64,000 nucleotides of DNA, taken from the NCBI GenBank assembly GCA_016933575.1, contig JAFGAR010000025.1, positions 31,976 through 95,975 of the forward strand. Direction: 5' to 3'. Source of the DNA: Candidatus Thorarchaeota archaeon (GTDB taxonomy: Archaea > Asgardarchaeota > Thorarchaeia > Thorarchaeales > Thorarchaeaceae). This document shows, in pieces, positions 112-36,552 of this stretch. Every line of letters starts with the position of its first letter. Within the stretch, counting starts at the first letter, position 1. The notes beneath the pieces are model-generated. The model ran no database searches. It had not been told where the DNA came from and worked only from the letters and a program-made list of their open reading frames with translations. A program made the position numbers and the translations under genes.

Positions 112-849
112 TTATGCCAATACTAGTAGATAAGGAATTATTGAATAACCACTGAATAGGACTCCTGTCACATTCAGGAATAGATGAATAAATCCAACTG
201 GCCACATGCTCCCAGTTCTTCTGTAAAGGAATACATATCCAATTGGCATTATGAATTGAATAATGAAGAATAGTTCAGTAAATAGGAAGACATAGTTACT
301 CCCTAGTAGGAATTTCCCCCAAAATAGTGCATGAATCATTCCAATAAGAGTAATGTATAATGCACCACCAACGAATACCATTATTGACCTTTTTCGACCC
401 TCTTTGTAAAATTCAGCATATGAGTCAAAAGTATAGAGCCAGATCAATTGTTCTGAGAACGCATTTATAGGTGCCCAGATTGCTAAAGTCAGAATCCATC
501 CAAGAGGATCAAGGATTCCTATATGTATGATAGTAAACCATGAGGTAATTACCAACACACCTTGAAGTGCGAAGAGAGAGATGAATAGTGGAGTGAGATA
601 GCTTCTGAATTGTTGTCGTATGTTGCCTCTTTGTATTTTGTAGTCAAGACTTCCTTTACGCCACTTCACAATAAGTATTGCAAAGAGACCGTAATATATC
701 GCCATAGGAATCAATGCACCTGTGATGTCGAAGAGATACCCTGCGATAATGGGCATCAGAATTGCTGCAATTGTAGCTATGATGAGATCTAATTGTTTTG
801 GATGGTAGTTGTCATGAACAAAATCAGAAAGCAATCGCTTCATCTCCAA
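112..849 (-). CDS. Polytopic membrane protein, CPBP (CAAX/Abi) intramembrane protease-like
   Basis: 245-aa ORF that is hydrophobic throughout (about 7 helices). It carries CPBP-like motifs FSEQLIW (degenerate EExxxR), IHALFW (FxxxH-like) and HLFLN (HxxxN). Confidence 0.5.
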   Translation of the reverse strand: MEMKRLLSDFVHDNYHPKQLDLIIATIAAILMPIIAGYLFDITGALIPMAIYYGLFAILIVKWRKGSLDYKIQRGNIRQQFRSYLTPLFISLFALQGVLVITSWFTIIHIGILDPLGWILTLAIWAPINAFSEQLIWLYTFDSYAEFYKEGRKRSIMVFVGGALYITLIGMIHALFWGKFLLGSNYVFLFTELFFIIQFIMPIGYVFLYRRTGSMWPVGFIHLFLNVTGVLFSGYSIIPYLLVLA

Positions 850-1024
850 AGGATAATTAACTATAGTGAATATATAATCCTTGCTATCTGACCAAGTTGG
901 CTAGGCTATTGGTTTTGTTGTTTTACAATAATAACATACGATTTGTCACTAGTCCGAAGATGTGGCAAACGTACACAAAATACTTCATTAGATATGATAG
1001 TATATTCTCTCCAGGGCTGATTGC

Positions 1025-2323
1025 TTGAAACTACAAAGAATTGCTATCTTTTTTTATATAATGATTCTATGTGTAGGGCAATTCAATACTCTCCAATTTA
1101 GTTATCAAACGTCTTTGGAACAATCTACAATGTGGCTTGTCACTACTTATTCTGACAGGAATGAGTTTGACTGTTCAGATACTATAATCATTGAATTTGA
1201 TGAGGATTTTAAAAATCAGGGTTGGTCTGGAAATGGGACGTCTAGTAATCCCTACGTATTAGCTAATGAAATAATAGAAGGAGATCGATGTATCTGGATT
1301 AGAGATACTACCAGTTACTTTAGGGTTGATAACTGCACACTAATTGCAGAGTATCAAGGAATCATTCTCTCAAATGTCACTAATGCAGTCCTGATTGATT
1401 GCGTAATAAACTCAAAGCATACTGGAATTGTAATAGATGACTCATATCTGTGTGAAGTAGTCAATAATAGTATTGAAGTGTATAATTGCGGATTTGCACT
1501 CACTCATTCAAATCAGAGTTATCTGGAAAACAACACGATATCGTGTAAGGTCGGTACAAATTCGTTTCTTCATCGTTGTATTAATACGACCCTTCTTAAT
1601 AATACAATTCTCGGAGGAACTAATGGCGTAACATTTCTATCGTGTAGTAGTTCCAATATCCTGAACAATACAATTGCCAGTACTGAATTCGCACTTCAGC
1701 TTATCGAATCAACATATAATTCAACTATTATTGGTAACCAATTAGGAAGTGTAGAGACTCCCACTGCAATTGATGATGGAATTGGCAATTTGTGGGATGA
1801 TGGAATCTCCCTAGGTAATGCTTGGTTTGACTATCAAGGAATTGGAGATTATCAAATACTTGGTACAGCAAATAACGCAGACCACTTTCCGACTAAATTC
1901 GACCCATCATTTCCAATGGATTTCGAGGGTCCCCTGATTCTTGCTTCTTTGGGCTCTCTCTATATTGATTATTGTAATGAGCTCCCATCTTCATACAGAT
2001 TTACTGCAATTGTGAATGACACATCGGGAGTAGATACGGTCATAATGACTGTTAATGGTATTCCTCACAAAATGACACATCAACCTAGTGAAAGTAAACC
2101 AGACCTATATGTCTATGATCATCCAATGGAGTCCTGGATGGTGTATTCCTACTGGGCAAATGATACAATTGGTCTATCATCAGAGACCCCGGTAGGCCAC
2201 ATTTCTGCTGGTGTTATGTATTGTCCGGAGCAATTTAGTGGATTCGATATAGCATTGCAATTACTTGTTGTTGCAATTGTTAGTGTGATTGCTCTTGTGC
2301 TATTTTGGAAAATCAAAAAATAG
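1025..2323 (+). CDS. Secreted, membrane-anchored parallel beta-helix (PbH1/NosD-like) repeat protein
   Basis: TTG start and an N-terminal hydrophobic signal (IAIFFYIMILCVG). About 22-aa beta-helix-type repeats are rich in NxS/T sequons (NNSIEVYNCG, ENNTISCK, LNNTILGG, LNNTIAST). A C-terminal TM anchor is present (LLVVAIVSVIALVLFW). Confidence 0.65.
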   Translation: MKLQRIAIFFYIMILCVGQFNTLQFSYQTSLEQSTMWLVTTYSDRNEFDCSDTIIIEFDEDFKNQGWSGNGTSSNPYVLANEIIEGDRCIWIRDTTSYFRVDNCTLIAEYQGIILSNVTNAVLIDCVINSKHTGIVIDDSYLCEVVNNSIEVYNCGFALTHSNQSYLENNTISCKVGTNSFLHRCINTTLLNNTILGGTNGVTFLSCSSSNILNNTIASTEFALQLIESTYNSTIIGNQLGSVETPTAIDDGIGNLWDDGISLGNAWFDYQGIGDYQILGTANNADHFPTKFDPSFPMDFEGPLILASLGSLYIDYCNELPSSYRFTAIVNDTSGVDTVIMTVNGIPHKMTHQPSESKPDLYVYDHPMESWMVYSYWANDTIGLSSETPVGHISAGVMYCPEQFSGFDIALQLLVVAIVSVIALVLFWKIKK

Positions 2324-2437
2324 AAACAAGTATGAGAATTCTCTTTGAACCCACTCCCCTCTTAATAGACTTCTAGTAGGAATTATCTGTAACAGAACGA
2401 CTAAATACCAATCATCTCTCTATCTCAGTGTTCAGCG

Positions 2438-4018
2438 ATGACGAAACTTCTGATAACCGATACCACATTAAGAGACGCACATCAGTCCCTCATTGCTACA
2501 AGAATGCGTACAGAGGATATGCTTCCAATCTGTGAGAAGATAGACAAGGTTGGGTACCATTCTCTTGAGATGTGGGGTGGTGCAACCTTTGATTCAATGA
2601 TGCGTTTCTTGGATGAAGATCCCTGGGAACGAGTTGAGATACTCAAGGAAGCTATGCCTAAAACAAAATTTCAGATGCTCTTACGAGGATCTAACATTGT
2701 TGCCTATAGACAATATGCTGATGATGTTCTTGAGGCTTTTGTAACAGAAGCAACAAAAGTTGGTATCGATATATTTCGAATCTTCGATGCGCTCAACGAT
2801 ATACGAAATATGGAAGCTGCTATGAATTTCGTCAAACGTGAAGGTGGACATGTTCAAGCTAGTATTTGTTACACACTCAGTCCATTCCATACAAATGAAA
2901 AATTCGTTGAAATGGCAAGGGAACTCTATGAAAAGGATGCTGATTCAATCTGCATCAAGGACATGGCGGGTCTGATCTCACCTGAAGCTGCCTATGACCT
3001 TGTTAAAAGATTGAAAGAAGAGATCGACATACCCATTCAGTTGCACTCGCATTATACAAGTGGTATGGCTGCGATGGCTTATCTGAAGGCATCAGAGGTA
3101 GGTGTCGATGTTGTAGATTGTGCAATATCAGCATTCTCTATGGCGACATCACAACCAGCAACAGAGTCAATTGTTGAGGCATTGAAGGGTACACCTCGTG
3201 ATACGAAGTTGAGTATCAATCAACTATCCGAGATTGCAAATTACTTCAGAAAGATCCGTCGAAAATATGGCCAGTTTGAGGGGAACCTTCAAGGTGTGGA
3301 TCCTCAAGTGCTTGTCTTTCAGATTCCTGGTGGTATGCTTTCCAATCTTGATAATCAGCTACGAGAGCAAGGCGCACAAGATCGTTACGATGAAGTTCTC
3401 GAAGAGGTACCTCGAGTCCGTGCGGAGTTAGGATATCCTCCCCTCGTTACACCATCGAGTCAAATCGTTGGCACGCAGGCAACACTCAACGTAGTAACTG
3501 GAAAGAGGTATAGTATGATTCCAACTGAGGTAAAGCAATACATTAGAGGCTATTATGGAAGACCTCCAGCAGAGATTGACCCAGAAGTCAAGAAGATGGC
3601 AATTGGTGATGAGGAACCACTTAATCGTCGACCTGCAGACTTACTTGAGTCTGAATTACCAGTCGCTCGTGAAGCTCTGAATGGCATACAACACCTACCA
3701 AGGGATGAGGTATCGTATGCTCTATTTCCACAATATGCCTTGGAGTTCCTTAAGAGAAAGGCTCAGCAAAAAATAGCTGGACAAATGACCCCTGAATTTG
3801 AGGTCGCATTAGCTGCAGCGGTACTACACATGAATGGAGCTGGCGTCGGAGCTATCTCACATACAACAACAAGAGCTCAAACATGGTCCGATGCCGGTGT
3901 TTCTGACCTTATTGAAGGCCGTGTAGTTCAACATACTCCTGGTCAATGGGAACAATCCAGATCATCATGGTCTTCTGCTGGTCGAAAAGATATCATGCGA
4001 AGTAGAAGTCGGGGGTAA
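2438..4018 (+). CDS. Biotin-dependent carboxyltransferase subunit (pyruvate carboxylase B / oxaloacetate decarboxylase alpha / transcarboxylase 5S type) with no fused biotinyl domain
   Basis: Signature N-terminus ITDTTLRDAHQS...LEMWGGATFD, the CIKDMAGL carbamyl-lysine motif and the LHSHYTSG metal site. The 526-aa protein ends in an atypical Trp/Ser/Arg-rich tail. Confidence 0.9.
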   Translation: MTKLLITDTTLRDAHQSLIATRMRTEDMLPICEKIDKVGYHSLEMWGGATFDSMMRFLDEDPWERVEILKEAMPKTKFQMLLRGSNIVAYRQYADDVLEAFVTEATKVGIDIFRIFDALNDIRNMEAAMNFVKREGGHVQASICYTLSPFHTNEKFVEMARELYEKDADSICIKDMAGLISPEAAYDLVKRLKEEIDIPIQLHSHYTSGMAAMAYLKASEVGVDVVDCAISAFSMATSQPATESIVEALKGTPRDTKLSINQLSEIANYFRKIRRKYGQFEGNLQGVDPQVLVFQIPGGMLSNLDNQLREQGAQDRYDEVLEEVPRVRAELGYPPLVTPSSQIVGTQATLNVVTGKRYSMIPTEVKQYIRGYYGRPPAEIDPEVKKMAIGDEEPLNRRPADLLESELPVAREALNGIQHLPRDEVSYALFPQYALEFLKRKAQQKIAGQMTPEFEVALAAAVLHMNGAGVGAISHTTTRAQTWSDAGVSDLIEGRVVQHTPGQWEQSRSSWSSAGRKDIMRSRSRG

Positions 4019-4022
4019 TTAG

Positions 4023-4547
4023 ATGAGTCCGGAGTATAAGGTCATAATCGATGAACGACCCTATAATGTTGAGGTAAATAAACTGGATGAGGGTGGTGTC
4101 TTGGTTGTAAAGGTCGGTGATCAGAGCTTCACGATGAAGGCGATTGTAAACGAAGACGGAACTTGGATCGTCAATGACCTTACTACAGATTATCCCGTGA
4201 AGGTGATAAAACGGGCTGGTCAAAATATCACACTTGAGATTAACGGTCAAGAACGTGAATTGGTCTGGGAACGTCTGAGAAAGGTCGAGACCACAAAGAA
4301 GGTTTCAACGACAAATCAAAGTGGTCCAAAAGTGGCTGGCGGTATCTATGCACCAATGCCCGGAAAAATCACTGAGATTCGTGTAACTGCTGGTGATAAG
4401 ATTAAACCCGGTCAGACAGTATGTATACTTGAAGCAATGAAGATGTTCAATGAGCTAAAAGCTGAAACTGCAGGTACTGTGAAGGAAGTCAATGTTGAAG
4501 TGGGTTCCATGGTGACTCCCTCTGACCTACTGGTTCTCATTGGATGA
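4023..4547 (+). CDS. Biotin carboxyl carrier protein (stand-alone biotinyl domain with N-terminal extension)
   Basis: Biotinylation motif CILEAMKMFNEL near the C-terminus. The N-terminus (YKVIIDERPYNVEVNKL) resembles carrier subunits of decarboxylase or transcarboxylase complexes. The gene starts 4 nt after the carboxyltransferase stop. Confidence 0.9.
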   Translation: MSPEYKVIIDERPYNVEVNKLDEGGVLVVKVGDQSFTMKAIVNEDGTWIVNDLTTDYPVKVIKRAGQNITLEINGQERELVWERLRKVETTKKVSTTNQSGPKVAGGIYAPMPGKITEIRVTAGDKIKPGQTVCILEAMKMFNELKAETAGTVKEVNVEVGSMVTPSDLLVLIG

Positions 4548-4559
4548 GGAGGTAGTACT

Positions 4560-5726
4560 GTGGACCCGGTTAATATTATCGGAGTCGGGATGACAAAATT
4601 TGGTGTTCTAGATGATTCAATACTTGATTTAGCTCAACAAGCTGCTTTTCAAGCAATTGATGACTCATCGACTACCGAGGTTCCCTTTGAATATCTCGCT
4701 GTTGGTGTACAGAATCCCGATGAGTTTGTGGGTCGTGGTCATTTCTCTACACTTCTAGCTGACACCCTCGGCATTGTACCTGCAGGAGCAATCCGTGTTG
4801 AGACAGGGCCATCATCAGGTTCAAGCGCATTCGAATCTGCCTTTGCTCTTATTGCTTCTGGGATGGCTGACTTGGTGCTTGTTGTGGGTGTCGAGAAGAT
4901 GTCTGAAGTGGACCGGGGCGTCGCTTCAAAGATATTAGCGAAGATGATGTCCTACGAGAATGAGACCCGCTATGGTGCTACACCTGCTGCTTTAGCTGCA
5001 ATGATAACCCGCAGATACATGCACGATTATGGACTGACGCGCAATGAACTCTCACTTCTCCCGGTGAAAGCCCATCGAAATGGAGCAAAGAATCCCCTTG
5101 CACATTTCCGGAAGGAAATTACAGTGGAAACAGTCAACAATTCTCGTATTGTTGCTGATCCTCTGACTCTGTTTGATTGTTGCCCGACGAGTGATGGAGC
5201 CGCTTCCATAGTTGTTGCATCAGATAGAATCGTGAAGAAGTATGGGCTCTTAGACAGGACCATCCGCGTAGCTGGCATTGGTCATGGTACCGATTATCTT
5301 GCTGTACAACACAGACTTGCACTGACCTCTATGAATGCAACAGTTACTGCTGCTCAAAGAGCTTTCAAGATGGCAGATGTACAACCCAGAGATGTTGGTG
5401 TCTGTGAACTCCATGATGCATTTTCTATTCTTGAACTAATCGATATGGAAGATGTAGGCCTTGTCGAACGTGGGACAGCAATTGATGCAGTTAAGGCTGG
5501 CAATACTGAGGTTTCTGGAGATATGCCTGTCAACCCGAGTGGCGGTCTTAAAGCTAGAGGTCATCCCACAGGTGCGACTGGAGTTGCACAAATTAGAGAC
5601 ATTGTTTTGCAATTACGAGGAGAAGCTCCTAAAGGACTTCAAGTCGATAATCCTCGTTATGGTCTTACCCAGAACATTGGTGGTTTTGGGAACAATATGG
5701 TAGTGGCAATTTTTTCCAGTCTCTAG
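4560..5726 (+). CDS. Thiolase-fold protein (SCP-x / archaeal thiolase-like) lacking the usual nucleophilic Cys
   Basis: GTG start preceded by GGAGG. Thiolase-family motifs are present: GVGMTKFG, LFDCCPTSDGAAS, NPSGGLKARGHPTGATG and NIGGFG. The expected ACASG loop reads GPSSGS and the expected HDCF reads HDAF. Confidence 0.8.
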   Translation: MDPVNIIGVGMTKFGVLDDSILDLAQQAAFQAIDDSSTTEVPFEYLAVGVQNPDEFVGRGHFSTLLADTLGIVPAGAIRVETGPSSGSSAFESAFALIASGMADLVLVVGVEKMSEVDRGVASKILAKMMSYENETRYGATPAALAAMITRRYMHDYGLTRNELSLLPVKAHRNGAKNPLAHFRKEITVETVNNSRIVADPLTLFDCCPTSDGAASIVVASDRIVKKYGLLDRTIRVAGIGHGTDYLAVQHRLALTSMNATVTAAQRAFKMADVQPRDVGVCELHDAFSILELIDMEDVGLVERGTAIDAVKAGNTEVSGDMPVNPSGGLKARGHPTGATGVAQIRDIVLQLRGEAPKGLQVDNPRYGLTQNIGGFGNNMVVAIFSSL

Positions 5727-5943
5727 CAGAATTATTCATCCAAGATTGTCTTATTAGAAGAGCTCAGTCATTTGATGGCTGACAAGTATAATCTAGAGTA
5801 TTTTCCTAATAGACGACCTACTGACTCTAATGGGACTAGAGTAAGGATGCAAGTATTTGCATCAAGCTATGAAGTAGGGCAAATAACTCTAGATAGTACT
5901 ATTCCAGAGTCACTGGAATACCATTGTTTGGAGAATTGTTGAA

Positions 5944-7110
5944 ATGCCTGAAGGCCTTGCTGTAATGAAATGGGATGATGAGCTGGGACCTGTAGTTGCT
6001 TCTAAAACTCCTAAAGGCCTAAAATTGGGTCTTGATCCTACAACATCAATGCGAGTATACGGAATCGCTACTCTTGGAGAAACTGAGGACTCTCAAAAGC
6101 CTGGATTTAACACGCTCGCCTTTAATGACTTCAAGCTAGCTGTTTATTATGGCGGTCTAAATATGCATTTGAAAGGACTGCCCTCTATGGTCTTTCTCGT
6201 TCTAAATTTGGACGAGGATCCTGACCTGTATAAGGACGCCTTGCCTGAAATAGCAACTCAGATTTTTCTTAATGCTGATGATAATAAATTCAAAGAGATG
6301 GTTCCAAAATTATACAAGCAGATTGCAAGATACACGCAAATGAGTGCAGAACAGCGCCAAGCTTCAGTTCTTAATGATCCTGTTCGTCGAACAATTCTGC
6401 AGACATTAATGAAACGTGGAACACTTCAGTCAGCAGACCTTGAACAAATCATCCTTGATGAGGTCGGTAAGAAAATCGATGTCGATCTAATTCTACGACC
6501 TCTTGTTAACATGGGCATCATCGCGACTGGTTGGGTGGAGGGTCTTTCCTCGGAAGTAGTGTATCTTACACGAGCTCTGTTCATTCTACGGAAGGTTTCT
6601 CTCGACACTGTTCATGCATTTAGAGATAGTAAATTCCCTCCTGAGGTATCTGAGCAGTTTATGGAATCTTCTCGTAAGTATCACCATGAGTATGTGACTA
6701 ATTTTCATACTAGTCTATTTGAAACAATCTGGACAGAAGTTGATTCTCTAGTCAAATACATTCTAGATTTCAACACATATGATATCCTCCAAGTACTTCG
6801 CAAAGGCCCCTTGGGCATCAAGGAACTGAAGGCTGAGGTCAAATTGACAGAGTCTAAGCTCAGAGCTCATTTAGAAATCCTTCAGGATGCTGATATTGTG
6901 ATGCAAATAAGTGATGAGGAGGGTCATGAGTATGCCATACTCAAGTGCGATCCGGAAGTTGTTACGGTGTATCCTGAGTGGCTGATACAAAAAACAGTTG
7001 AACTGTATAATGATGAAGAGATTGCTAGTCGTCAAGCCATCCATTATTTAGAGGTTCTTAAAAAATCACATCCTAGTCTAGCTACTTCAATAGCACTAGA
7101 GGTTGAGTAG
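5944..7110 (+). CDS. Longin-like N-terminal domain plus two winged-helix-like domains (uncharacterised)
   Basis: The N-terminal 130 aa or so show a beta-beta-alpha-beta-beta-beta-alpha hydrophobic pattern. wHTH-like segments lie at about 6361-6589 (RRTILQTLMKRGTLQSADLEQII) and 6772-6945 (YDILQVLRKGPLGIKELKAEV...HEYAILK). Confidence 0.5.
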   Translation: MPEGLAVMKWDDELGPVVASKTPKGLKLGLDPTTSMRVYGIATLGETEDSQKPGFNTLAFNDFKLAVYYGGLNMHLKGLPSMVFLVLNLDEDPDLYKDALPEIATQIFLNADDNKFKEMVPKLYKQIARYTQMSAEQRQASVLNDPVRRTILQTLMKRGTLQSADLEQIILDEVGKKIDVDLILRPLVNMGIIATGWVEGLSSEVVYLTRALFILRKVSLDTVHAFRDSKFPPEVSEQFMESSRKYHHEYVTNFHTSLFETIWTEVDSLVKYILDFNTYDILQVLRKGPLGIKELKAEVKLTESKLRAHLEILQDADIVMQISDEEGHEYAILKCDPEVVTVYPEWLIQKTVELYNDEEIASRQAIHYLEVLKKSHPSLATSIALEVE

Positions 7111-7175
7111 GTTCAGAAACATGACACCATTTAATGTGAGGCACCATATGAATGATTGAAATTTGGTGAGAAACA

Positions 7176-8060
7176 ATGATTCGAGAGATACACATTTTCA
7201 AGGATGGACTGACACTCTTCGAAGATGTCATTGTTCCGAATAAGGATTTGGACACATCTGCTGTTATGGATCTCGTTTCTGCTTCTGCTAGAAAGTTACA
7301 GGAGTGGAAGATAGACAGTATGGAGATTGAACGCTATCGTTTTGTCTACATGAACTCGCATGATACACAATTTATCATCACCATGGACAGACAAGCCTCA
7401 CTCCAGAAGGTTAGCGAAGCTCTGATGAGTCTGGTGTCAAAGTTTATGACAGCTTTTGAAAAAATCCTTGAATCAGAAGAATGGAAGGAGACCGATTTCT
7501 CTCCCTTCAGAATTGGATTTCGAACTATTGTTGGTAGGATTCCGTGCAAAGTCTGTCTTGCTGGTCATGGGGGAACTGGAAAAACGACACTTCTTGAACT
7601 TGCTACATTGCCTTCAAAAGGACCCCCTCAAGAATACATACCTACATTCTTTGGAGATAAAGCGCTACTAAAAGCTGATTTTGATCCTTACATCTTCAGT
7701 ATGTTTGACCTTGGCGGTCAAGATCGATTTGTACAGGAATGGGGAAAGATCATCCGCGCAGGAAGTATGGTTGTTATAGTCACTGATTCTACTGAAGAAA
7801 ACATCGAATGGACAAAACGTGTTGCATATCCTGTTTTAAAGTCTGAATTGCCATATGCACGAGTCATAGCAATCGCGAATAAACAGGATTTGAAAGGAGC
7901 CCTCTCTCCTGAACAAGTCAGTAAGCTTCTAGATGTTCCAGCCTATGGCATGCAAGCGAATAAAGCAGAGTTCAGAGAGCAGTGGTTGAGGTTACTGAAA
8001 GCCCTCGCATTTGAAGAGATTGATTTCAACATTGTAAGTGAGATTATGGATAGTGTATGA
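7176..8060 (+). CDS. Small GTPase, Arf/Sar/SR-beta-like, with N-terminal longin/roadblock-like domain
   Basis: G1 is GHGGTGKTT (about 7563-7589), G3 is DLGGQDRF (about 7707-7730) and G4 is NKQDL (about 7878-7892), followed by an Arf-like segment ALSPEQVSKLLDV. A non-GTPase alpha/beta domain of about 125 aa precedes them. Confidence 0.8.
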   Translation: MIREIHIFKDGLTLFEDVIVPNKDLDTSAVMDLVSASARKLQEWKIDSMEIERYRFVYMNSHDTQFIITMDRQASLQKVSEALMSLVSKFMTAFEKILESEEWKETDFSPFRIGFRTIVGRIPCKVCLAGHGGTGKTTLLELATLPSKGPPQEYIPTFFGDKALLKADFDPYIFSMFDLGGQDRFVQEWGKIIRAGSMVVIVTDSTEENIEWTKRVAYPVLKSELPYARVIAIANKQDLKGALSPEQVSKLLDVPAYGMQANKAEFREQWLRLLKALAFEEIDFNIVSEIMDSV

Positions 8061-8132
8061 GGGCGAATATAATGAGTAGAACGATCAAAAAGACAGACCT
8101 TGATGATGAAAGGGTCATCAAATATTTCATGA

Positions 8133-8525
8133 ATGATTTTGATATACGTAGCTATAATCGGGGGTATCAAAATGGGTTTATTTGATAGATGGCGACGAAA
8201 GAAAGATCGAGAAGTAACTATACGGTTGCAAGAACCTGAAAAGGTTCTGATATCCAATAGCGAAATTGATACAGAGAATACCCATGTACAGTCCGAGAAT
8301 GTAGATTCCTTAGTCCGAGAGTATGAAAGCCTCATAGCCAGAAGAGAAGAGCTTCAAATCGAAAGAAATGAACTTACAGAGCGTCTAGATCGCGGAGAAA
8401 TCGACAATGACGAATTTCGAGAACAACTAATGCTTAGAATTCAAGAAGCCGCAATGGTTTCAGAGAATCTACGAATCACTAGTTCCAAACTTACTTCACT
8501 TGGATACCGTGGTGTGCTACATTAG
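8133..8525 (+). CDS. Small coiled-coil protein with SHOCT-like C-terminal motif
   Basis: The real start is probably the ATG at 8172 (MGLFDRWRRKK), preceded by a GGGG stretch. It has a charged heptad-like region and a GEIDNDEFREQLMLRI motif. Confidence 0.45.
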   Translation: MILIYVAIIGGIKMGLFDRWRRKKDREVTIRLQEPEKVLISNSEIDTENTHVQSENVDSLVREYESLIARREELQIERNELTERLDRGEIDNDEFREQLMLRIQEAAMVSENLRITSSKLTSLGYRGVLH

Positions 8526-8542
8526 GTGAACCACAATGATGA

Positions 8543-8965
8543 ATGAAATTCCATCAAGTCACAAATGTATGGAACCCGAGAATGCAGAATACGACTAAAA
8601 TCATGAATTACGGAGATATCCCTTTGGTAAAAACACTAGATGAAGTGATGTGTTTCCTTGAGAACTATACTTTAGCTTGGCATCATTGGCTGATGGTACT
8701 CTCATTAGTGAAACTGGGTGGCAGTGGCAAGAAGAGTCAGATTTTACCAGTATACAAACAAGAAGGGTTCTCGCCGCATGTGATTGATAAGGTCTTTCAG
8801 ACAGACTTAGAAGATTTAGGTGACGCTATCCAGATTCAAGATGGTATCCTCTCTCTTACAGACAATTCAATAATTACTTTAACAGATGACATACGATTTC
8901 AGAAGTTCTTGAAAAAGCACATCAAATCTGTCATATCAACCTTCAAACAACGAAGGATCAAGTAA
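8543..8965 (+). CDS. Hypothetical protein, last gene of the GTPase cassette
   Basis: 140-aa ORF, co-directional and 17 nt after the previous stop. I recognise no motif, and the start codon is uncertain. Confidence 0.4.
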   Translation: MKFHQVTNVWNPRMQNTTKIMNYGDIPLVKTLDEVMCFLENYTLAWHHWLMVLSLVKLGGSGKKSQILPVYKQEGFSPHVIDKVFQTDLEDLGDAIQIQDGILSLTDNSIITLTDDIRFQKFLKKHIKSVISTFKQRRIK

Positions 8966-9023: not shown

Positions 9024-9347
9024 ATGTTACTCAAAGCTTCCAAGTGTCCTGATTGTGAGAGAATTAGTATCCCTTCAAGGACGATATGTCCTTACTGTGG
9101 AAAGAAAGCGGGAGTTTCAACCAATATTGAAGTGGAGGGCTTGGGGCATATTATTACTTTTACCGAGCTGCACATGCCTCCTGAGGGATTTGAACCACCT
9201 CTGAAAATGGCGCTTGTGAAATTGACTACAGATACGATGATTCTGTGCCTTGAGGACGAAGCGAATCATGAAGAAATCTACATTGGAGCTCCGGTAGAAA
9301 TATCTTCAGATAGTAGTGATAGATTTACATTTTGTATAAAAGATTGA
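9024..9347 (+). CDS. DUF35-type zinc-ribbon/OB-fold protein (thiolase-associated acyl-CoA-binding family)
   Basis: Rubredoxin-like CPDCERISIPSRTICPYCG followed by an OB-like beta-rich C-terminus. The size and layout are typical of DUF35 partners of thiolase-fold enzymes. Confidence 0.75.
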   Translation: MLLKASKCPDCERISIPSRTICPYCGKKAGVSTNIEVEGLGHIITFTELHMPPEGFEPPLKMALVKLTTDTMILCLEDEANHEEIYIGAPVEISSDSSDRFTFCIKD

Positions 9348-10690: not shown

Positions 10691-11251
10691 ATGGCTGTAT
10701 TAGAATATCTGATGGTGTATACAGAGGCTGGTTTACCAATCTATAGTAAGTGCTTTGGAACATTTTGCATGACAGCATTTCAAAATCCTGAACTACTCTC
10801 AGGATTCTTGTCAGCACTTCAGACCTTACCAATGACCATCTCATCGGATCTAAGTCTTGATTCTGTAAAAATGGGTCCCACAGAGATGCGTTTCTCACGG
10901 ACAATCCCCAGTGGTCATTCAATAGTAGTCGGACTTCCCGAGGATAATAAGGAGATTGCAGACAAGGTCTTTACTTCAGTATCAGAAATCTTAACCTCAA
11001 ATCATTTCAAGGATATTGATTGGAACTTCATCTCATCTGATGTAATGCATCAATTCGAGACCGAGTTGCTTCAGACCGCTCTCTTTCAGGCATTACAAGA
11101 ACATGGCGGATTTGAGGATAAGTGTCCACTCGGGGACCAATGTCCTATTCATACAAATGCTCTTCAGTACAAAACAAAACGTGTGAAAGTCTGGAACATG
11201 ATCAAGGACAAGTATGCAGCGATGAAAGCTCGTATGAGTAGTTCAAAATAA
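10691..11251 (+). CDS. Longin/roadblock-like domain protein with C-terminal Cys/His-containing extension
   Basis: N-terminus MAVLEYLMVYTEAGLPIYSKCFG...ELLSGFLSALQTL...HSIVVGLPEDNKEIADKVF has the same fold-type pattern as the N-domains at 5944 and 7176. The C-terminus contains KCPLGDQCPIH. Confidence 0.5.
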   Translation: MAVLEYLMVYTEAGLPIYSKCFGTFCMTAFQNPELLSGFLSALQTLPMTISSDLSLDSVKMGPTEMRFSRTIPSGHSIVVGLPEDNKEIADKVFTSVSEILTSNHFKDIDWNFISSDVMHQFETELLQTALFQALQEHGGFEDKCPLGDQCPIHTNALQYKTKRVKVWNMIKDKYAAMKARMSSSK

Positions 11252-11291: not shown

Positions 11292-13082
11292 TTAGTTCTT
11301 TACAATTGCGATTATTCTATAGACACCATTCACTTCTTGAATTGTGGCTGTGAAATTATCCGTCGAATTTAGGAACAGAAGTGTGTACCAATCTGACGTA
11401 TTCATCCATGCCTGAGCCCCTTCAAGAAATTCGTAGGTTGCATTATCTGTCCTCAGAAGAACATGTTCTTGGTTATTCTGTACAAAGGATGTTTTGTCAA
11501 CCACTGTTGCTGTCATATTGAAGGTATCTGTAGGTTCTGGTTCAAGCATGCCACCAAATAGAGCAACATATTGTTCTCTCGCCTCATGGACAAGATTCTC
11601 ACCAGATAGAGTACCTCCCAAGGGCACCCAAACAAATCTGTCTATATTTGAGGCATCAACAAGACCTAGTGCATGAAGGCGCATGTTTGAAGCAACATAT
11701 TCTCCTAGATCCTCGTCGTAGTAAGCATCCGCCCAGTAGATTGGTGTGTACCAAGTCCACTTGGTCAAAGTTGAATTTACAACGACTGGATAGAGAAGAG
11801 GCATTGCACCATAATAGAATCCACTAGCAGGAGCTCCTATATCCGCAACGACATTAGCTGCTGCTGCATCACCACTTACAAAACCCAATCCACTCAGGTC
11901 GTGATAGTAAACTTCAGTCTGCGTTGCTCTGAATACTCCTGCGAGGGTTCGCGAGGCAGTAACTGGGTGCACCGCGATGAATGCTTCAATATGTCCTGTA
12001 TCTGGATTCAGGATGTATCTAGTATCTTCAGTGATTTCAAGTCTGTCGTTGGAAGGTGCAATGAACCATAGTAGACCGCCAGCAAACAGATCAAATGTAG
12101 ATCCTCGTCGATAGCCACCCCATCGTCCAATCTGTCTCTCAAGCCATTCCTCTGCATATGCTTGAGTGACCCACTTTGGTGTGTCTTCAATCGAATCATA
12201 GGTATATATGGAACCATTCTCTGCATAGACAACAGGTCCAATTGCCCGTTCTACATAATCGAATCCAAGCGGAGTTCTTGTCTGAACATAGACCAAGTTA
12301 CCTGAATTATCCCAGGTCGGGTATGCATATTCGTATGCGGATGTCATATCAGCTAGATAATTTCCAAACTGAATATTTCGATCCCAGAACAGGCCTTCTC
12401 CTACGGGAATTGTCGTGTTAGTTATGAGACCCGGTTCTATTGATTGAGGATCGTTGGCATCGACAATAATGAATCCTTTCACAAAGTTTTCAGCCAGCAC
12501 ATTCGTGGACACTATCGTACACACCCAGACTAGCGTCCCATTCGGGTTCTTAGTAATATGCGCAGAAGCTACTGCTGTATTTGAACCAAAAGGCGAAAGA
12601 TGTTGATTTGCAACATAGATTGCATATTCTTCTGTAACAAGCCTGACCATTCTATCCGGGATTGGATTCAAGAATAGTGGGTCATCAGTCTCAGCAATCA
12701 TGGAATCAAAGTATTCCGCATTCGCAACTCCAGATGTCCAACCAATTACTCCTCCGAACATTGGTACAATCATGAGCACTATGAGTCCAAAACATGTGAA
12801 TGGCACTTTGATCCCACTCAACATATCCTCGATTTGACCTCCGGGACGGAACCCGCTAGTGAACATCATTATTGCACCAAGACTCATTATCAGCCCCAAT
12901 ATAGCCCAAGGCAATGTTGTAGCAAAGAGCAAACAGATGATTGCCCAAGCTACAGTTCCCCAAGCTAATCGAAGTGGTAACCATTTAATAAGTCTAGACG
13001 GAACTGTGTATTGTCGTGAGAAAGGAATTGGTATTGCATGTGCAATTAGTGAAATTAGAAGAAATACAAGTACGTTCATCAA
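11292..13082 (-). CDS. Membrane-anchored protein with large extracytoplasmic domain (uncharacterised)
   Basis: 596 aa, with about 4 N-terminal TM helices followed by a roughly 450-aa soluble region containing several NxS/T sequons. I recognise no family motif. Confidence 0.6.
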   Translation of the reverse strand: MMNVLVFLLISLIAHAIPIPFSRQYTVPSRLIKWLPLRLAWGTVAWAIICLLFATTLPWAILGLIMSLGAIMMFTSGFRPGGQIEDMLSGIKVPFTCFGLIVLMIVPMFGGVIGWTSGVANAEYFDSMIAETDDPLFLNPIPDRMVRLVTEEYAIYVANQHLSPFGSNTAVASAHITKNPNGTLVWVCTIVSTNVLAENFVKGFIIVDANDPQSIEPGLITNTTIPVGEGLFWDRNIQFGNYLADMTSAYEYAYPTWDNSGNLVYVQTRTPLGFDYVERAIGPVVYAENGSIYTYDSIEDTPKWVTQAYAEEWLERQIGRWGGYRRGSTFDLFAGGLLWFIAPSNDRLEITEDTRYILNPDTGHIEAFIAVHPVTASRTLAGVFRATQTEVYYHDLSGLGFVSGDAAAANVVADIGAPASGFYYGAMPLLYPVVVNSTLTKWTWYTPIYWADAYYDEDLGEYVASNMRLHALGLVDASNIDRFVWVPLGGTLSGENLVHEAREQYVALFGGMLEPEPTDTFNMTATVVDKTSFVQNNQEHVLLRTDNATYEFLEGAQAWMNTSDWYTLLFLNSTDNFTATIQEVNGVYRIIAIVKN

Positions 13083-30824: not shown

Positions 30825-32174
30825 TTAGTTAGTAAGAAGGTATCTCTCAATCTCCCAAGGAGTAATCTCTGAACTTGGTAGGTCTCCAGTAGCTTCAATG
30901 AATTCAGACCATTCCTGACCTCTGATTCTCACCAAAGTATCCACAACGTTCTCTCCCAAGGCACTCCTTACGATTGTACTCCTTTCTAATCTCAATAGTG
31001 CATGAACTAAAGATTGTGGGAGTGATTCAAGAGAACCAAGTGACTTGTACACATCTCGATCTGTAGGCACCGGTGCATCAAGTTTCCGTTCTATTCCAGC
31101 CAATCCACTAGCAAGAAGCACTGCTATAGCCAAGTGTGGTGAAGATGAAGGATCGGGACATCTTATTTCTATTCTTGCTGACTTCTTTGAACCATTGAAA
31201 TGAGGTATCCGTATCATAGTACTGCGATTTCGGTAGCCCCACGCTATGCTTGTAGGAGCTTCAAAACCGGGTACCAACCTCTTGTAGGAGTTTACAGTAG
31301 GTGCAAGAATTGCTGCTAGTTCGTGTGCATCCTCTAAGAGACCTCCAATAAAGTGCATTGCAAGCGGAGAGATTCCACTAGGTCTTTCTGTTGCAAATAG
31401 ATTGTTTTCTCCTTGAAGATCCCAGACACTCTGGTGTAGGTGCATCCCTGATCCGTTCTGATTAGAGAAGGGTTTTGGCATAAATGTGGCAATCAATCCT
31501 CGTCTGTAAGCAATCTCTGAGATTATGAGCCTAGCAAGAAGTATGTTGTCTGCTGCCACTTCTGCTGAACAGTATTGAAGGCCAATCTCTTCTTGCCCCT
31601 GTGCGACCTCATGATGATGAGACGTAGTTGGAATGCCAACTGCCTGCAGAGTCCTGATAATATCGCGTCTAAAATCCAGACCACAGTCACTGGGCTGCGA
31701 GGAGAAATACCCTCCACGATCAAGAGGAACAAGAGTATCATCATGCAGTCGCCTGACAGTGAAGAACTCGAGTTCACTTCCAACCATTAACTGATATCCC
31801 ATTTTGTGAGCTTTATCTACAATCCTTCTAAGGATATATCTTGGATCACTCAGATGAGGTTGTCCTGATATTTCGTGGACCGTGCATATGATATAGGCAG
31901 CGGCAGGATCCCACGGTTGGAGAGTTGGGGTGGCGCTAGAAGGGAGAAGGAGAAGATCGCTCTCGTTAACCGACGCATATCCAGGGACTGATGAACCATC
32001 GATAACAATGCCATTCTCAAGGACCTCATCCAATCGATCATATCCAAGTTCTATGCTTCGAGTATGACCTAAAATATCTGTAAATAATAATCGTAGGAAT
32101 TCCGGATGTGTTACTTTACTGTCCATCAATAGTTCACCGTATGATATAGATAATTCAATTTTGAGAGAATTCAT
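30825..32174 (-). CDS. glnA: Glutamine synthetase (type I family)
   Basis: LRLLFTDILG N-terminal beta-grasp, FMPKPFSNQNGSGMHLHQS, NSYKRLVPGFEAP and IEIRCPD motifs. The start could be the Met at about 32126. Confidence 0.9.
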   Translation of the reverse strand: MNSLKIELSISYGELLMDSKVTHPEFLRLLFTDILGHTRSIELGYDRLDEVLENGIVIDGSSVPGYASVNESDLLLLPSSATPTLQPWDPAAAYIICTVHEISGQPHLSDPRYILRRIVDKAHKMGYQLMVGSELEFFTVRRLHDDTLVPLDRGGYFSSQPSDCGLDFRRDIIRTLQAVGIPTTSHHHEVAQGQEEIGLQYCSAEVAADNILLARLIISEIAYRRGLIATFMPKPFSNQNGSGMHLHQSVWDLQGENNLFATERPSGISPLAMHFIGGLLEDAHELAAILAPTVNSYKRLVPGFEAPTSIAWGYRNRSTMIRIPHFNGSKKSARIEIRCPDPSSSPHLAIAVLLASGLAGIERKLDAPVPTDRDVYKSLGSLESLPQSLVHALLRLERSTIVRSALGENVVDTLVRIRGQEWSEFIEATGDLPSSEITPWEIERYLLTN

Positions 32175-32287
32175 TGCACTTTATTTGAACCCTAAGGGCG
32201 CCGAAACTCGTTAGGTTTCCAGATGTCTGATACTGGGCAACGTAATTCTCTCTTGGTGTTACGTACAAGATTAGGCTATATTCATTT

Positions 32288-32353
32288 CCCGTAAAAATGA
32301 GAAAGTATTTCAGTATTTTCGGTGAAATATGCATTTAATCCGTAAAAATTTCG
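32288..32353. promoter_or_regulatory. Repeated CATTT-N2/3-CCGTAAAAAT motif in the glnA/lrp divergent intergenic region
   Basis: CCGTAAAAAT occurs at 32288-32297 and 32339-32348, each preceded by CATTT. The second copy forms CCG-N9-CGG (32339-32353), and the first CCG is matched by ATTTTCGG at 32314-32321. Confidence 0.4.
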
Positions 32354-32370
32354 GATTTATGGTGGTTTAG

Positions 32371-32862
32371 ATGCTGCAAATTAAACTTGATGATACCGAC
32401 CTGAAAATTCTAGAAATCCTTCAGAAGGATAGTAAGAGAAGCATCGCTAGTATTGCCAAGGAAGTGGGCAAAGGTATTTCCACCGTTCACGATCGAATCA
32501 AGACGCTTCAGAATGATGGCATCATCAAGGGATTCACTGCAATTGTATCACCTCAGACAGTGGGGCGCGAGACCCTTGCATTCATCCTTGTGACAATCAG
32601 GTATCGCGTACCGGGACAAAAGACAGTCCTTTCCCAGAGAGAGTTTTGCCAAGAAATTGCAGTTCACCCATTCGTACAGAGTGTTCATGTATTGAGTGGT
32701 GAATATGATGTACTATTGAAGGTACGCACAAAGAACATCGAGGAGATGAACCACTTCATTGTGGATTTTCTACGTGAGCTTCCTGCAGTTGATAAGACAC
32801 TGACAATGTTTGCTATGGATTCCTATCTCGATTCACTCGTACTTAGAGACCTATCTCTATAA
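32371..32862 (+). CDS. Lrp/AsnC family transcriptional regulator
   Basis: LDDTDLKILEILQKDSKRSIASIAKEVGKGISTVHDRIKTLQNDGIIKGF is the HTH, followed by a RAM/ACT-like C-terminal domain. The gene is divergent from glnA. Confidence 0.9.
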   Translation: MLQIKLDDTDLKILEILQKDSKRSIASIAKEVGKGISTVHDRIKTLQNDGIIKGFTAIVSPQTVGRETLAFILVTIRYRVPGQKTVLSQREFCQEIAVHPFVQSVHVLSGEYDVLLKVRTKNIEEMNHFIVDFLRELPAVDKTLTMFAMDSYLDSLVLRDLSL

Positions 32863-33104
32863 TTTTCTCTCTACATAGCCTACTGGGTTTTCAATCATTT
32901 TGGTACTTGCGTGATTTACTAATGCTCTATATTCATTATACTAAGATCTTTGGGTTGGAATTATTGGGGCAGATTTAGAATCGGAAATTGCCTCTATTTG
33001 CCTCTCAGCTCCGTAATTCTTGCCCAATTCACACCTTTAACTACCATCAGGAATTTCAAGGATAAAATTACGAGTTATATCAAAGATACTTATTATGAGT
33101 AAGT

Positions 33105-33776
33105 TCAATTGATTTTATCATTAGGGTTTTTTTGTGCTTTTTTCTGTAATGCTTGGACATATGCCTGAATAAAATCGCTATCGGTCCTCAAACGATACAG
33201 GTATTTCATTCCGCCCCAAGACGAATCGGAAGCTTTTTTCTCTACTATTTCAAGAGATTCCATTCTATCAATTATTCCATTTTTAGAATATACACGTTTT
33301 TGTGAGACGTTAGATTCTTGAATGATACTATGTTTGTTCATCCAACCTATCTTCTCTTGTGTAGAATATTCATTTGAAAAGTCTATACCCTTATCGAGAA
33401 GGAAATCTGCCATGGCCCTCAATACAGCTATCTCATCCGCAAGAAGGAATTTTTTCAGAAATACATCAAAATCTTGGGAAGAAAATGATAACCACTGTTC
33501 TATTGGTGTATTTGCAAGTTCGACATTCATTTTACTCGTACGATTAGCTAGAGCTTCTGTTCTTGTTGAAACAAGATAAAATGCAATTATGACAATAATG
33601 ACTGCAAGTATTGAAGTAGTGATTGCAATCAGAGGCAGTAATGATAGAAACGAGATTTGATTCAGAATAAATACAGAATGAGTTTCAAATTGTGTCATTT
33701 GCTTAATCATTACTATTCTCTGCAACTCGTTAGACACATTGAATCCCTTCACAATTACTAATCGGATTTTGAGCAA
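33105..33776 (-). CDS. Membrane-tethered winged-helix-like protein (uncharacterised)
   Basis: One long TM segment (LLPLIAITTSILAVIIVIIAFYLV) is followed by a wHTH-like region (HSIIQESNVSQKRVYSKNGIIDRMESLEIVEKK...GGMKYLYRL). The start is probably an internal Met (MIKQMTQ). Confidence 0.45.
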   Translation of the reverse strand: MLKIRLVIVKGFNVSNELQRIVMIKQMTQFETHSVFILNQISFLSLLPLIAITTSILAVIIVIIAFYLVSTRTEALANRTSKMNVELANTPIEQWLSFSSQDFDVFLKKFLLADEIAVLRAMADFLLDKGIDFSNEYSTQEKIGWMNKHSIIQESNVSQKRVYSKNGIIDRMESLEIVEKKASDSSWGGMKYLYRLRTDSDFIQAYVQALQKKAQKNPNDKIN

Positions 33777-33860
33777 GTTTTCTGTTCAAAGGATACTTGA
33801 GAACCTTCATAGTCGCTATTCAAACTGTCTTATCAATTATCTGTATTTTTTCCGTGAATG

Positions 33861-36206: not shown

Positions 36207-36552
36207 CCTATTATATTCCTAGAATCCTGTTTTTCTATGTACAGAACAAAAAGAAAAGTGTGTCTCTTTTTTACAAGCAAGATTTGTATCTAAAGTCGGC
36301 ATTTTACAAAATAGAGTTTTTTCCAACGATTTAAATTGATTTAAAATCTTATGAAAAGAGATTTTGCAATATTATGGCTATTGAATGCTCTATTTTAGAG
36401 TAGAAAAGATTGAATCCAAAAACTTACACTTTTCTTCCGATTCTTTTTCTTTTCATGTATTCACAACAGCACGAATACAGGAGTGTATGTTATGGTGTTA
36501 GGTGGGGGGTCCTTAGAATTGCTATCAAGAATACGAGGGAGAGTCTTGAAGA

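Follow-up and report, generated by a model that had tools for sequence, protein, structure and literature searches.

A conserved operon of Thorarchaeota and Atabeyarchaeum couples an NPRL2-like longin protein to a longin-fused Arf-like GTPase: a candidate small-GTPase switch module

We analyzed a stretch of 64,000 nucleotides (nt) from a Candidatus Thorarchaeota archaeon (assembly GCA_016933575.1, contig JAFGAR010000025.1; the whole stretch is referred to below as the window). Four open reading frames (ORFs), all on the forward strand at positions 5944-8965, encode a protein predicted to carry a longin domain followed by winged helices (gene 1), a small GTPase fused to a longin domain of its own (gene 2) and two small proteins (genes 3 and 4). 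We propose, giving this reading about an even chance, that genes 1-4 make up the conserved core of an operon, found in the Asgard groups Thorarchaeota and Atabeyarchaeum, for a small-GTPase switch module, and that gene 1 is its direct regulator, probably of the GTPase-activating protein (GAP) type. Gene 1 (5944..7110, 388 amino acids, aa) and gene 2 (7176..8060, 294 aa) are 100 % identical to GenBank proteins, including locus tag JW779_01845. Among the 120 best matches of each, from Thorarchaeota, identity is 64-76 % for gene 1 and 76-87 % for gene 2. The ORF arrangement is not a product of chance: in more than 100 sequences from Thorarchaeota the two large proteins keep an identity of 64-87 %, a degree of conservation that points to strong constraint on both.

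The product of gene 2 consists of an N-terminal longin domain (aa 1-120, 7176..7535), similar to those of AP-sigma and Mon1, and an Arf-like G domain (aa 121-294, 7536..8057). The G domain carries the G1 motif GHGGTGKTT (aa 130-138, 7563-7589), the G2 threonine T157, the G3 motif DLGGQ (7707-7721; DLGGQDRF at aa 178-185) and the G4 motif NKQD (7878-7889; NKQDL at aa 235-239). The sequences GHGGTGKTT, DLGGQDRF and NKQDL, which the initial annotation had already picked out, are invariant in 69 gene 2 orthologues, with Q182 as the catalytic glutamine. We modeled the protein with AlphaFold2 (AF2) on a diversified alignment of 82 sequences and obtained a predicted local distance difference test (pLDDT) score of 89.5 and a predicted template modeling (pTM) score of 0.87. 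In this model the N-domain has the order beta-beta-alpha-beta-beta-beta-alpha-alpha with pLDDT above 90 and is packed on a complete G domain; the pTM value suggests a fixed arrangement of the two, and the chain stops about 15 aa past helix alpha5. A profile of 34 diverse N-domains of the gene 2 family, cut before the P-loop, matched AP-2 sigma among PDB sequences with an E value of 8.9e-6, and also the AP-2 mu N-domain, AP-3/4 sigma, Bet5 and MON1. Pfam Fuz_longin_1 was found in seven of the 34 members and Clat_adaptor_s in six, and the Longin family was matched as well. Because the PDB profile, the Pfam matches and the AF2 model agree, the N-domain is a longin by sequence and predicted fold, in line with the initial proposal that a longin-like domain occupies the position of the N-terminal amphipathic helix of Arf.

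The initial annotation had placed the G domain closest to Arf, Sar and SR-beta, and its affinity to Arf was borne out at the level of best matches. Pfam Arf (PF00025) scores 47.7 bits on aa 124-254 (cut-off 22.3), followed by Roc (25.5 bits), Ras (21.0 bits) and SRPRB (15.7 bits, under its cut-off of 25). The best PDB sequences are GerdArfR1 (8oun/8oum), then Arl8, Arl6, Arf1 and Arl5; Rho/Cdc42 do not appear until near 1e-5. The top Foldseek ranks are held by GerdArfR1, Arf1, Arl8, Arl6 and Arl1, narrowly ahead of Rho, Rab and MglA. The PDB contains no representative of the ArfL group, and the ranking of gene 2 toward ArfR and Arf is to be read accordingly. Gene 2 is not of the Rag/Gtr type, as it gave no match to Gtr1_RagA (PF04670) at E<=1, has NKQD rather than an HKxD-type G4 and lacks a C-terminal roadblock domain. 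With the Arf family it shares glycine at the third position of G3 (DxGGQ) and NKQD. Rag GTPases also have DxGG. Two other hallmarks of Arf are missing. A 120-aa longin precedes the modeled G domain instead of an amphipathic helix, and the Arf-specific signature, Leu-Asp at G1 positions 2-3 (GLDxxGKT; Zhu et al. 2025, PMC11914678), is absent from gene 2 and from 225 of 225 relatives; GerdArfR1 has GLDSAGKTT.

An exhaustive representative search with gene 2 returned 537 relatives, many of them 270-750 aa long and aligned across both domains. The lineages represented among relatives are Thor, Atabey, Odin, Njord, Hel and Asgardarchaeia. An N-domain of at least 90 aa is present in 170 of 225 relatives and NKQD in 212 of 221; their G3 is mostly WDFAGQ, as opposed to FDLGGQ in the gene 2 orthogroup. 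Because the Leu-Asp signature is missing and the wider family has mostly WDFAGQ, gene 2 would not be a bona fide Arf or SR-beta. It would fit the ArfL type, specific to Asgard and placed outside the Arf clade by Vargova et al., an assignment that we infer from motifs and matches rather than from a tree.

Gene 1 was modeled on an alignment of 94 sequences (pLDDT 77.6). The model shows a longin domain, a first winged helix (WH1), a helical linker, a second winged helix (WH2) and three C-terminal helices. Its N-domain has the order beta-beta-alpha-beta-beta-beta-alpha-alpha and is followed by two helix-helix-helix-hairpin units, which agrees with the initial description of a longin-type domain and two winged helices. 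The longin domain (aa 1-134, 5944..6345; AF2 and DSSP) comprises strands at aa 4-11, 15-22, 54-59, 64-69 and 80-87 and helices at aa 32-43, 99-109 and 120-132, with pLDDT mostly 81-91 and a mean identity of 0.84 across the 94 sequences. This domain is, at the level of prediction, a longin by topology. The N-domains of genes 1 and 2, initially described as similar, do belong to the same fold class, but no sequence relation between them is apparent (hhalign 0.3 %), and the idea that they are recent duplicates was rejected. The modeled WH1 (about aa 135-219, 6346..6600) contains a conserved helix-3/wing segment, ATGWVEGLSSE..YLTR; conservation over aa 180-217 is 0.84, and T195, W197, E199, G200, L201, E204, L208, T209 and R210 are invariant, Atabeyarchaeum included. 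The modeled WH2 (about aa 274-342, 6763..6969) is ArsR/MarR-like by sequence. HTH_5 (E 7e-8, 32.7 bits, cut-off 22) and HTH_20 (E 4e-7, 30.3 bits, cut-off 27) were found here in nine of nine diverse gene 1 members. The HTH_5 match spans aa 280-319, about 40 of the 388 aa, and winged helix-turn-helix (wHTH) domains of the ArsR/MarR type at aa 280-320 are all that sequence searches of gene 1 recognize.

The best full-length Foldseek matches of the gene 1 model are 9v0j_A, 9o5d_D and 7t3b_B, from GATOR1 entries containing NPRL2, and 8adl_S, with E values of 1.3e-3 to 2e-2; chain identity is tool-confirmed for 8adl_S (yeast Npr2) only, and the other chains were assigned from their length. The longer matching chains 7t3a_C and 9o5a_C are probably NPRL3. 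Lower ranks are taken by ESCRT-II, Fuzzy-Inturned (9rs9_B, 7q3d_B), BLOC-3 (8zwc_B) and the Ykt6 longin. NPRL2 and NPRL3 consist of an N-terminal longin followed by at least two winged-HTH repeats (Levine et al., PMC3747258), and because the modeled longin and two winged helices fit that description, the architecture predicted for gene 1 is NPRL2/NPRL3-like. ESCRT-II, the analogue first suggested for the winged helices of gene 1, gives way to NPRL2/NPRL3, which share the combination of longin and winged helices and rank higher in Foldseek.

A second likeness to GAP longins lies in the motif W10-D11-D12-E13-L14-G15-P16 (5971..5991). According to the AF2 model, from which its placement is taken, the motif is situated at the beta1/beta2 junction, with G15-P16 at the start of beta2. 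The pattern [KR]WDDELGP[VI] is found in 62 of 62 distinct Thorarchaeota gene 1 sequences. In eukaryotes, W-D-x-x-L-G-P marks the catalytic pocket of the longin-heterodimer GAP complexes C9orf72-SMCR8, FLCN-FNIP and GATOR1. In sequence pattern and spacing the gene 1 motif equals W33-D34-N-I-L-G38-P39 of C9orf72; we checked the corresponding PDB sequences, which read YWDNILGPRV in C9orf72 (6lt0_C) and HPTLGPKI in NPRL2, with R78 of the latter in HKKYSRN (6ces_N). The 'GP motif' has been defined at the loop or the start of strand beta2 and reported to be specific to the GAP longins C9orf72, SMCR8, FLCN and NPRL2 and to one class of Asgard longins, with the essential W33-D34 of C9orf72 just upstream of it, and to be missing from the non-GAP longins of adaptins, TRAPP, DENND, FNIP2 and NPRL3 (Traffic 2025, PMC12290439).

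We compared gene 1 loci at >=60 % identity, 42 in species-representative genomes and 34 in metagenomes. Across these 76 Thorarchaeota loci gene 1 is 61-84 % identical (partial fragments up to about 85 %), nearly all lineage-named records with gene 1 are Thorarchaeota, and pycB, BCCP and thiolase genes always precede it. A long form, present at 39 loci, has the order gene 1, a gene for a very large protein (GIANT), gene 2, p186, gene 3, CC501, gene 4, DUF35 and acyl-CoA dehydrogenase. A short form, gene 1 to gene 4 followed by DUF35, is present at 19 loci including the window, and one intermediate locus retains CC501. The order of genes 1-4 is constant wherever the contig is long enough (about 60 classifiable Thorarchaeota loci). 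When the gene 1 tree is rooted with Atabeyarchaeum, at least three separate clades contain the short form, and therefore GIANT, p186 and CC501 have been lost repeatedly while genes 1-4 were kept. Direct adjacency of genes 1 and 2 is a derived state, most relatives having a membrane protein of 2,000-2,400 aa between them, and the four-gene cassette of the initial annotation, sound as a conserved core, is actually the reduced form of a larger operon. That the N-domains are of the longin type, that the GTPase matches Arf best and that the genes are syntenic in relatives otherwise bears out the initial annotation.

The GIANT protein, which is missing from the window locus, is 2,360-2,445 aa long in Thorarchaeota (e.g., positions 401-7738 of locus L004) and 1,595 aa in Atabeyarchaeum (positions 2085-6872 of locus L048). 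It is predicted to be a type-I membrane protein with a signal/transmembrane segment, about 2,000 aa of Ig/MG/CarboxypepD_reg-like domains and one transmembrane helix; the cytoplasmic tail of the Thorarchaeota protein, about 330 aa, contains an acidic tract as well as an HhH domain. CC501 forms a long coiled coil with a terminal wHTH. Matches of p186 to Snapin/Pallidin and of CC501 to ATG14/ATG16 are sub-threshold coiled-coil matches and were treated as spurious. The closed genome of Atabeyarchaeum deiterrae encodes, in this order, the 1,595-aa protein of GIANT layout, a homologue of gene 1 (E 3e-75, 33 % identical over 377 aa), a gene 2 orthologue, a gene 3 homologue and a coiled-coil-wHTH protein homologous to the C-terminus of CC501 (96.7 %, E 4.6e-10); the flanks of this module are unrelated to those in Thorarchaeota. 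In the window, the cassette is bracketed by a thiolase-like gene (4560-5726) and a gene for a DUF35 OB-fold/Zn-ribbon protein (9024-9347). DUF35 genes are the usual partners of archaeal thiolases, and the same thiolase/DUF35 split is present at every Thorarchaeota locus examined; therefore the insertion is old.

From the predicted folds, the motifs, the family placements and the gene linkage we infer a module in which gene 2 would be the switch, a catalytically complete ArfL-type GTPase with an AP-sigma/Mon1-like longin in place of the amphipathic helix, and gene 1 would be its dedicated regulator. The two proteins would bind each other by pairing of their longins into a longin-longin platform, as in C9orf72-SMCR8, FLCN-FNIP and GATOR1. 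The WD/GP loop of gene 1 could then touch the switch region of the cis-fused G domain of gene 2, and gene 1 would thereby control GTP hydrolysis by gene 2 as a GAP-type co-factor. Gene 3, with its basic N-terminus and coiled coil, and gene 4 may act as adaptors, as may p186 and CC501 in the long form, and the cytoplasmic tail of GIANT would be the likely membrane anchor or input in most relatives. A GAP-type role is favored because of the WD/GP motif and the NPRL2 architecture. We keep the opposite direction, an exchange factor for guanine nucleotides (GEF), open because no arginine finger was seen and because longin platforms are generally GEFs.

Several observations weigh against this proposal. 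More longin platforms are GEFs than GAPs. The Foldseek E values of gene 1 are only 1e-3 to 4e-2, with global TM-scores of about 0.2. The beta4-beta5 loop of gene 1, the site of the NPRL2 finger R78, lacks a conserved arginine; the loop reads GGLNMHLKGLP, usually has lysine, shows arginine in few sequences and is five residues shorter in Atabeyarchaeum. Nor was an obvious arginine finger seen in the longin of gene 2. The Atabeyarchaeum homologue of gene 1 has WDD..GT, with GT replacing GP. Pfam searches of nine diverse gene 1 members at E<=10 gave only wHTH families and no NPR2/NPR3, hhalign comparisons of the 94-sequence and N-domain profiles with verified human NPRL2 were negative, and no longin was matched when all PDB sequences were searched with the N-domain and the full-length profile, the gene 1 profile being shallow (Neff 1.75). 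Sequence homology of gene 1 to NPRL2/3, FLCN, SMCR8 or C9orf72 was thus not found by Pfam, hhalign or PDB profiles, and we rejected gene 1 as an NPRL2 homologue by sequence. Furthermore, a third lineage (L088, gene 2 at 55 % identity) keeps gene 2, p186, gene 3, CC501, a further gene and gene 4 without a clear gene 1, and no gene 1-like neighbor was found beside the longin-ArfL genes of Odin, Njord and Hel or beside a paralogue in an ESCRT neighborhood.

Some of these loci have additional features. The further gene of L088 (12018-13499), between CC501 and gene 4, encodes a 493-aa protein whose first 28 residues are gene 1-like (MPAGIALCSWNEKEGL against MPEGLAVMKWDDELGP); as only these 28 aa are alike and hhalign gives 11 %, which is not significant, it was rejected as a replacement of gene 1. 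The ESCRT-neighborhood paralogue (L052, 366-12179) is a longin-Arf-like GTPase with weak Fuz_longin_1 and Gtr1_RagA matches, encoded among the ESCRT genes EAP30, Vps28, UEV/E2 and Snf7. Coiled-coil proteins follow the longin-GTPase of Odin type at two loci (L049, 4528-5190; L051, 7822-8463) and have weak CdvA-like matches with E values of about 1e-4, below cut-off.

It is possible, if somewhat unlikely, that gene 1 partners gene 2 as an exchange factor or as an effector or scaffold of its GTP state, in the manner of Mon1-Ccz1, TRAPP, DENN or Fuzzy-Inturned, rather than as a GAP. The lack of a conserved arginine finger in either longin would fit such a role, as would the tri-longin GEFs Fuzzy-Inturned and BLOC-3 among the fold matches of gene 1 and the Mon1 and Bet5 GEF longins among the profile matches of gene 2. 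On the other hand, the tandem winged helices fit NPRL2/3 and not GEFs, and WD..LGP is reported missing from non-GAP longins (PMC12290439). We consider it rather unlikely that gene 2 is a switch complete in itself, with its longin clamping the G domain in cis as SRX does on SR-beta, an arrangement already proposed initially, and that gene 1 is just a peripheral effector. The fixed packing implied by the pTM of 0.87 and the N-domain of the 170 relatives speak for such a clamp, and because most of these N-domain-bearing relatives have no gene 1-like neighbor, the longin-GTPase fusion works without gene 1. However, the SRPRB score is under its cut-off, the longin profile of gene 2 matches AP-sigma, Mon1 and Bet5 rather than SRX, and gene 1 is strictly kept beside the gene 2 orthogroup in Thorarchaeota and Atabeyarchaeum, which argues for a core role.

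GenBank names gene 1 a 'wHTH transcriptional regulator', and it could accordingly be an ArsR/MarR-type transcription factor that uses the longin-like domain as a sensor and controls the neighboring genes instead of binding the GTPase. The above-threshold HTH_5 and HTH_20 matches agree with that name, and the ArsR-type proteins BigR, HlyU and NolR superpose on WH2, and on WH2 alone, with TMt of about 0.7 and a root-mean-square deviation of about 1.5 A. The label is nevertheless weakly supported, because WH2 is acidic (net charge -6, pI 4.7; whole protein pI 5.1) and its recognition helix, helix-3, is the least conserved part, with an identity of 0.34 against 0.84 in the longin and the WH1 wing. 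Winged helices of this kind serve protein contacts in NPRL2/3 and ESCRT-II, and we regard a transcription factor as improbable. Mere shared descent of adjoining genes, with no functional coupling, is the least credible of the explanations and very improbable: nearly all loci do come from one class, Thorarchaeia, and the flanking pycB, BCCP, thiolase, DUF35 and acyl-CoA dehydrogenase genes are equally syntenic, but genes 1-3 occur together again in Atabeyarchaeum between entirely different flanks, the core outlasts repeated deletion of the interleaved genes, and the gaps are short and free of terminator-like T-runs.

The proposed switch module, with gene 1 as its regulator, can be compared with several known systems. 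Like NPRL2 of GATOR1, gene 1 has a longin followed by tandem winged helices, L-G-P before beta2 and a similar length (388 against 380 aa), and its top full-length fold matches are Npr2 and chains of NPRL2 entries. The GATOR1 core NPRL2-NPRL3 acts on RagA/B, and gene 1 is tied by genetic linkage to a small GTPase that has a longin/roadblock-class domain of its own. In contrast to GATOR1, gene 1 shows no detectable homology and no R78-equivalent arginine, is a single gene rather than a paralogous pair and has no DEPDC5 with it; gene 2 differs from the Rag proteins of that system in being Arf-like, with NKQD, an extra domain at the N-terminus and no C-terminal roadblock. The Arf GAP C9orf72-SMCR8(-WDR41) resembles the present pair in the pattern and spacing of the motif and in having an Arf-like partner. 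However, C9orf72 and SMCR8 are longin-DENN proteins and gene 1 is a longin-winged-helix protein, and SMCR8 supplies a catalytic arginine of which no equivalent was found here.

Gene 2 resembles the Asgard ArfL/longin-GTPase fusions in its longin-G layout, in G-x-[GS]-G-[VT]-GKTT and NKQD, and in being restricted to Asgard; its orthogroup differs from them in having FDLGGQ instead of WDFAGQ and in belonging to an operon with an NPRL2-like protein. SR-alpha SRX/SR-beta and MglB/MglA, too, have a small GTPase seated on a platform of the longin/roadblock class, but the two are separate chains, unlike in gene 2, and MglA structures rank below Arf when gene 2 is compared by sequence and by fold. Finally, ESCRT-II shares two consecutive winged helices with gene 1 (Foldseek matches to 3cuq chains A, B and C, with E values of 8e-3 to 3e-2). 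Its subunits have no N-terminal longin, however, 3cuq ranks below the chains of the NPRL2 entries, and there are no ESCRT genes at the locus.

The two remaining genes of the core are short, and none of the four products has predicted transmembrane segments. The gene 3 ORF opens at 8133 and ends at 8525 (130 aa); homologues indicate that its start is the 14th codon, at 8172 (MGLFDRW...), which would give a protein of 117 aa (8172..8525) with a basic N-terminus (MGLFDRWRRKKD; net charge +4 over the first 20 aa), a coiled coil and a conserved C-terminal LGYRGVLH. A gene 3 homologue follows the GTPase in Atabeyarchaeum (hhalign 91.6 %, E 8e-7). Of the coiled coil with a SHOCT-like motif noted initially, the coiled coil stood; SHOCT (PF09851) scores E 6e-4 and 19.5-19.8 bits, below the cut-off of 27, is weak or absent in homologues and was rejected as a conserved feature of the protein after the GTPase. 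The gene 4 ORF opens at 8543 and ends at 8965 (140 aa), and the 21st codon, at 8603, is its probable start, giving a small conserved protein of about 120 aa (8603..8965). It is 55-67 % identical in the Thorarchaeota loci reaching that far and 29 % in L088, and it has neither a Pfam match nor an assignable fold. Its helical pattern may hint at a winged helix; kinship with the C-terminal wHTH of CC501 and its Atabeyarchaeum counterpart (Atab_229), or with the winged helices of gene 1, was rejected as there was no hhalign signal. The co-directional ORFs and the gaps of 17-72 nt reported initially were confirmed for the ORFs as opened (65, 72 and 17 nt from gene 1 to gene 4), and with the later starts of genes 3 and 4 the gaps become 65, 111 and 77 nt. 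No T-runs of at least 5 were found in the intergenic gaps.

A third longin-like protein of 186 aa is encoded nearby on the forward strand (10691..11251). It matches Pfam Fuz_longin_1 with E 0.0028 and the gene 2-type longin profile with 77 % in hhalign (E 2e-5), and it occupies the same position after acyl-CoA dehydrogenase in several relatives; its membership of the GTPase module is uncertain. Next to it, on the reverse strand (11292-13082), lies a gene whose 596-aa product belongs to no Pfam family and has several transmembrane segments at its N-terminus; this neighbor is kept even in the divergent L088. Elsewhere in the window, the stretch at 32000-42000 has a lower GC content (0.37 against about 0.43) and glycoside-hydrolase-like genes, and a 2,015-aa LamG/fn3/ThuA surface protein is encoded in this low-GC stretch (37214-43261), which may be a horizontally acquired island. 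A gene at 45080-48142 on the forward strand encodes an unusual protein of 1,020 aa in which an APH-type kinase domain, Peptidase_M23 and a class-III aminotransferase are fused.

Both large proteins belong to families that have been catalogued in silico. Notice of longin-GTPase fusions in Asgard goes back to Klinger et al. 2016 (cited in PMC4917890), with further mentions by Liu et al. (2020 preprint), Tran et al. 2024 (PMC10933270) and Zhu et al. 2025 (PMC11914678). The Liu et al. preprint describes an NPRL2-like family (longin and C-terminal domain) 'in most Thor MAGs' and few Loki MAGs (metagenome-assembled genomes). Judged by lineage and description, gene 1 is very probably a member of this family; our scan of genomes and our scan of metagenomes with a Thor and Atabey profile recovered gene 1 only as the Thor type at >=60 % and did not recover the 'few Loki MAGs'. 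The conserved operons of eukaryotic signature proteins given in the preprint are only those of ESCRT and of LAMTOR1/Rab/DENN, with no GTPase neighborhood for the NPRL2-like family. We found no published description of an NPRL2-like/GTPase operon in our literature search, and neither the gene 1 nor the gene 2 family is known to have been studied by experiment. The conserved linkage and the motif match are new, as far as we could find.

The locus bears on two open questions, namely which GTPases partner the GAP-like longins of Asgard with a GP motif (Traffic 2025, PMC12290439) and whether regulators or targets of the small GTPases of Asgard can be found through operon analysis (Trends Cell Biol 2016, PMC4917890). 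It offers a candidate pair, a protein of NPRL2 architecture with the C9orf72 motif linked to an Arf-like GTPase with a fused longin, plus two small conserved partners. The core proteins should be suited to expression in E. coli because they are small and without predicted transmembrane segments, and the idea of pre-eukaryotic longin-based GTPase regulation is therefore directly testable with them. If gene 1 turns out to be a GAP that lacks an arginine finger, or a GEF in spite of its GP motif, the reading of this motif in the human disease proteins C9orf72, FLCN and NPRL2 would change. A further-reaching suggestion, which we consider unlikely, is that this operon encodes an archaeal prototype of the eukaryotic GAP machines built on longin heterodimers (GATOR1, folliculin, C9orf72-SMCR8), one in which the substrate GTPase is still cis-fused to the second longin, gene 1 gives the WD/GP half-pocket and the full form is wired to the tail of a giant surface protein. 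If that were true, the operon would represent a primordial receptor-coupled unit of small-GTPase signaling or membrane organization, older than eukaryotic lysosomal nutrient sensing. The locus is a candidate archaeal forerunner of longin-based GTPase regulators.

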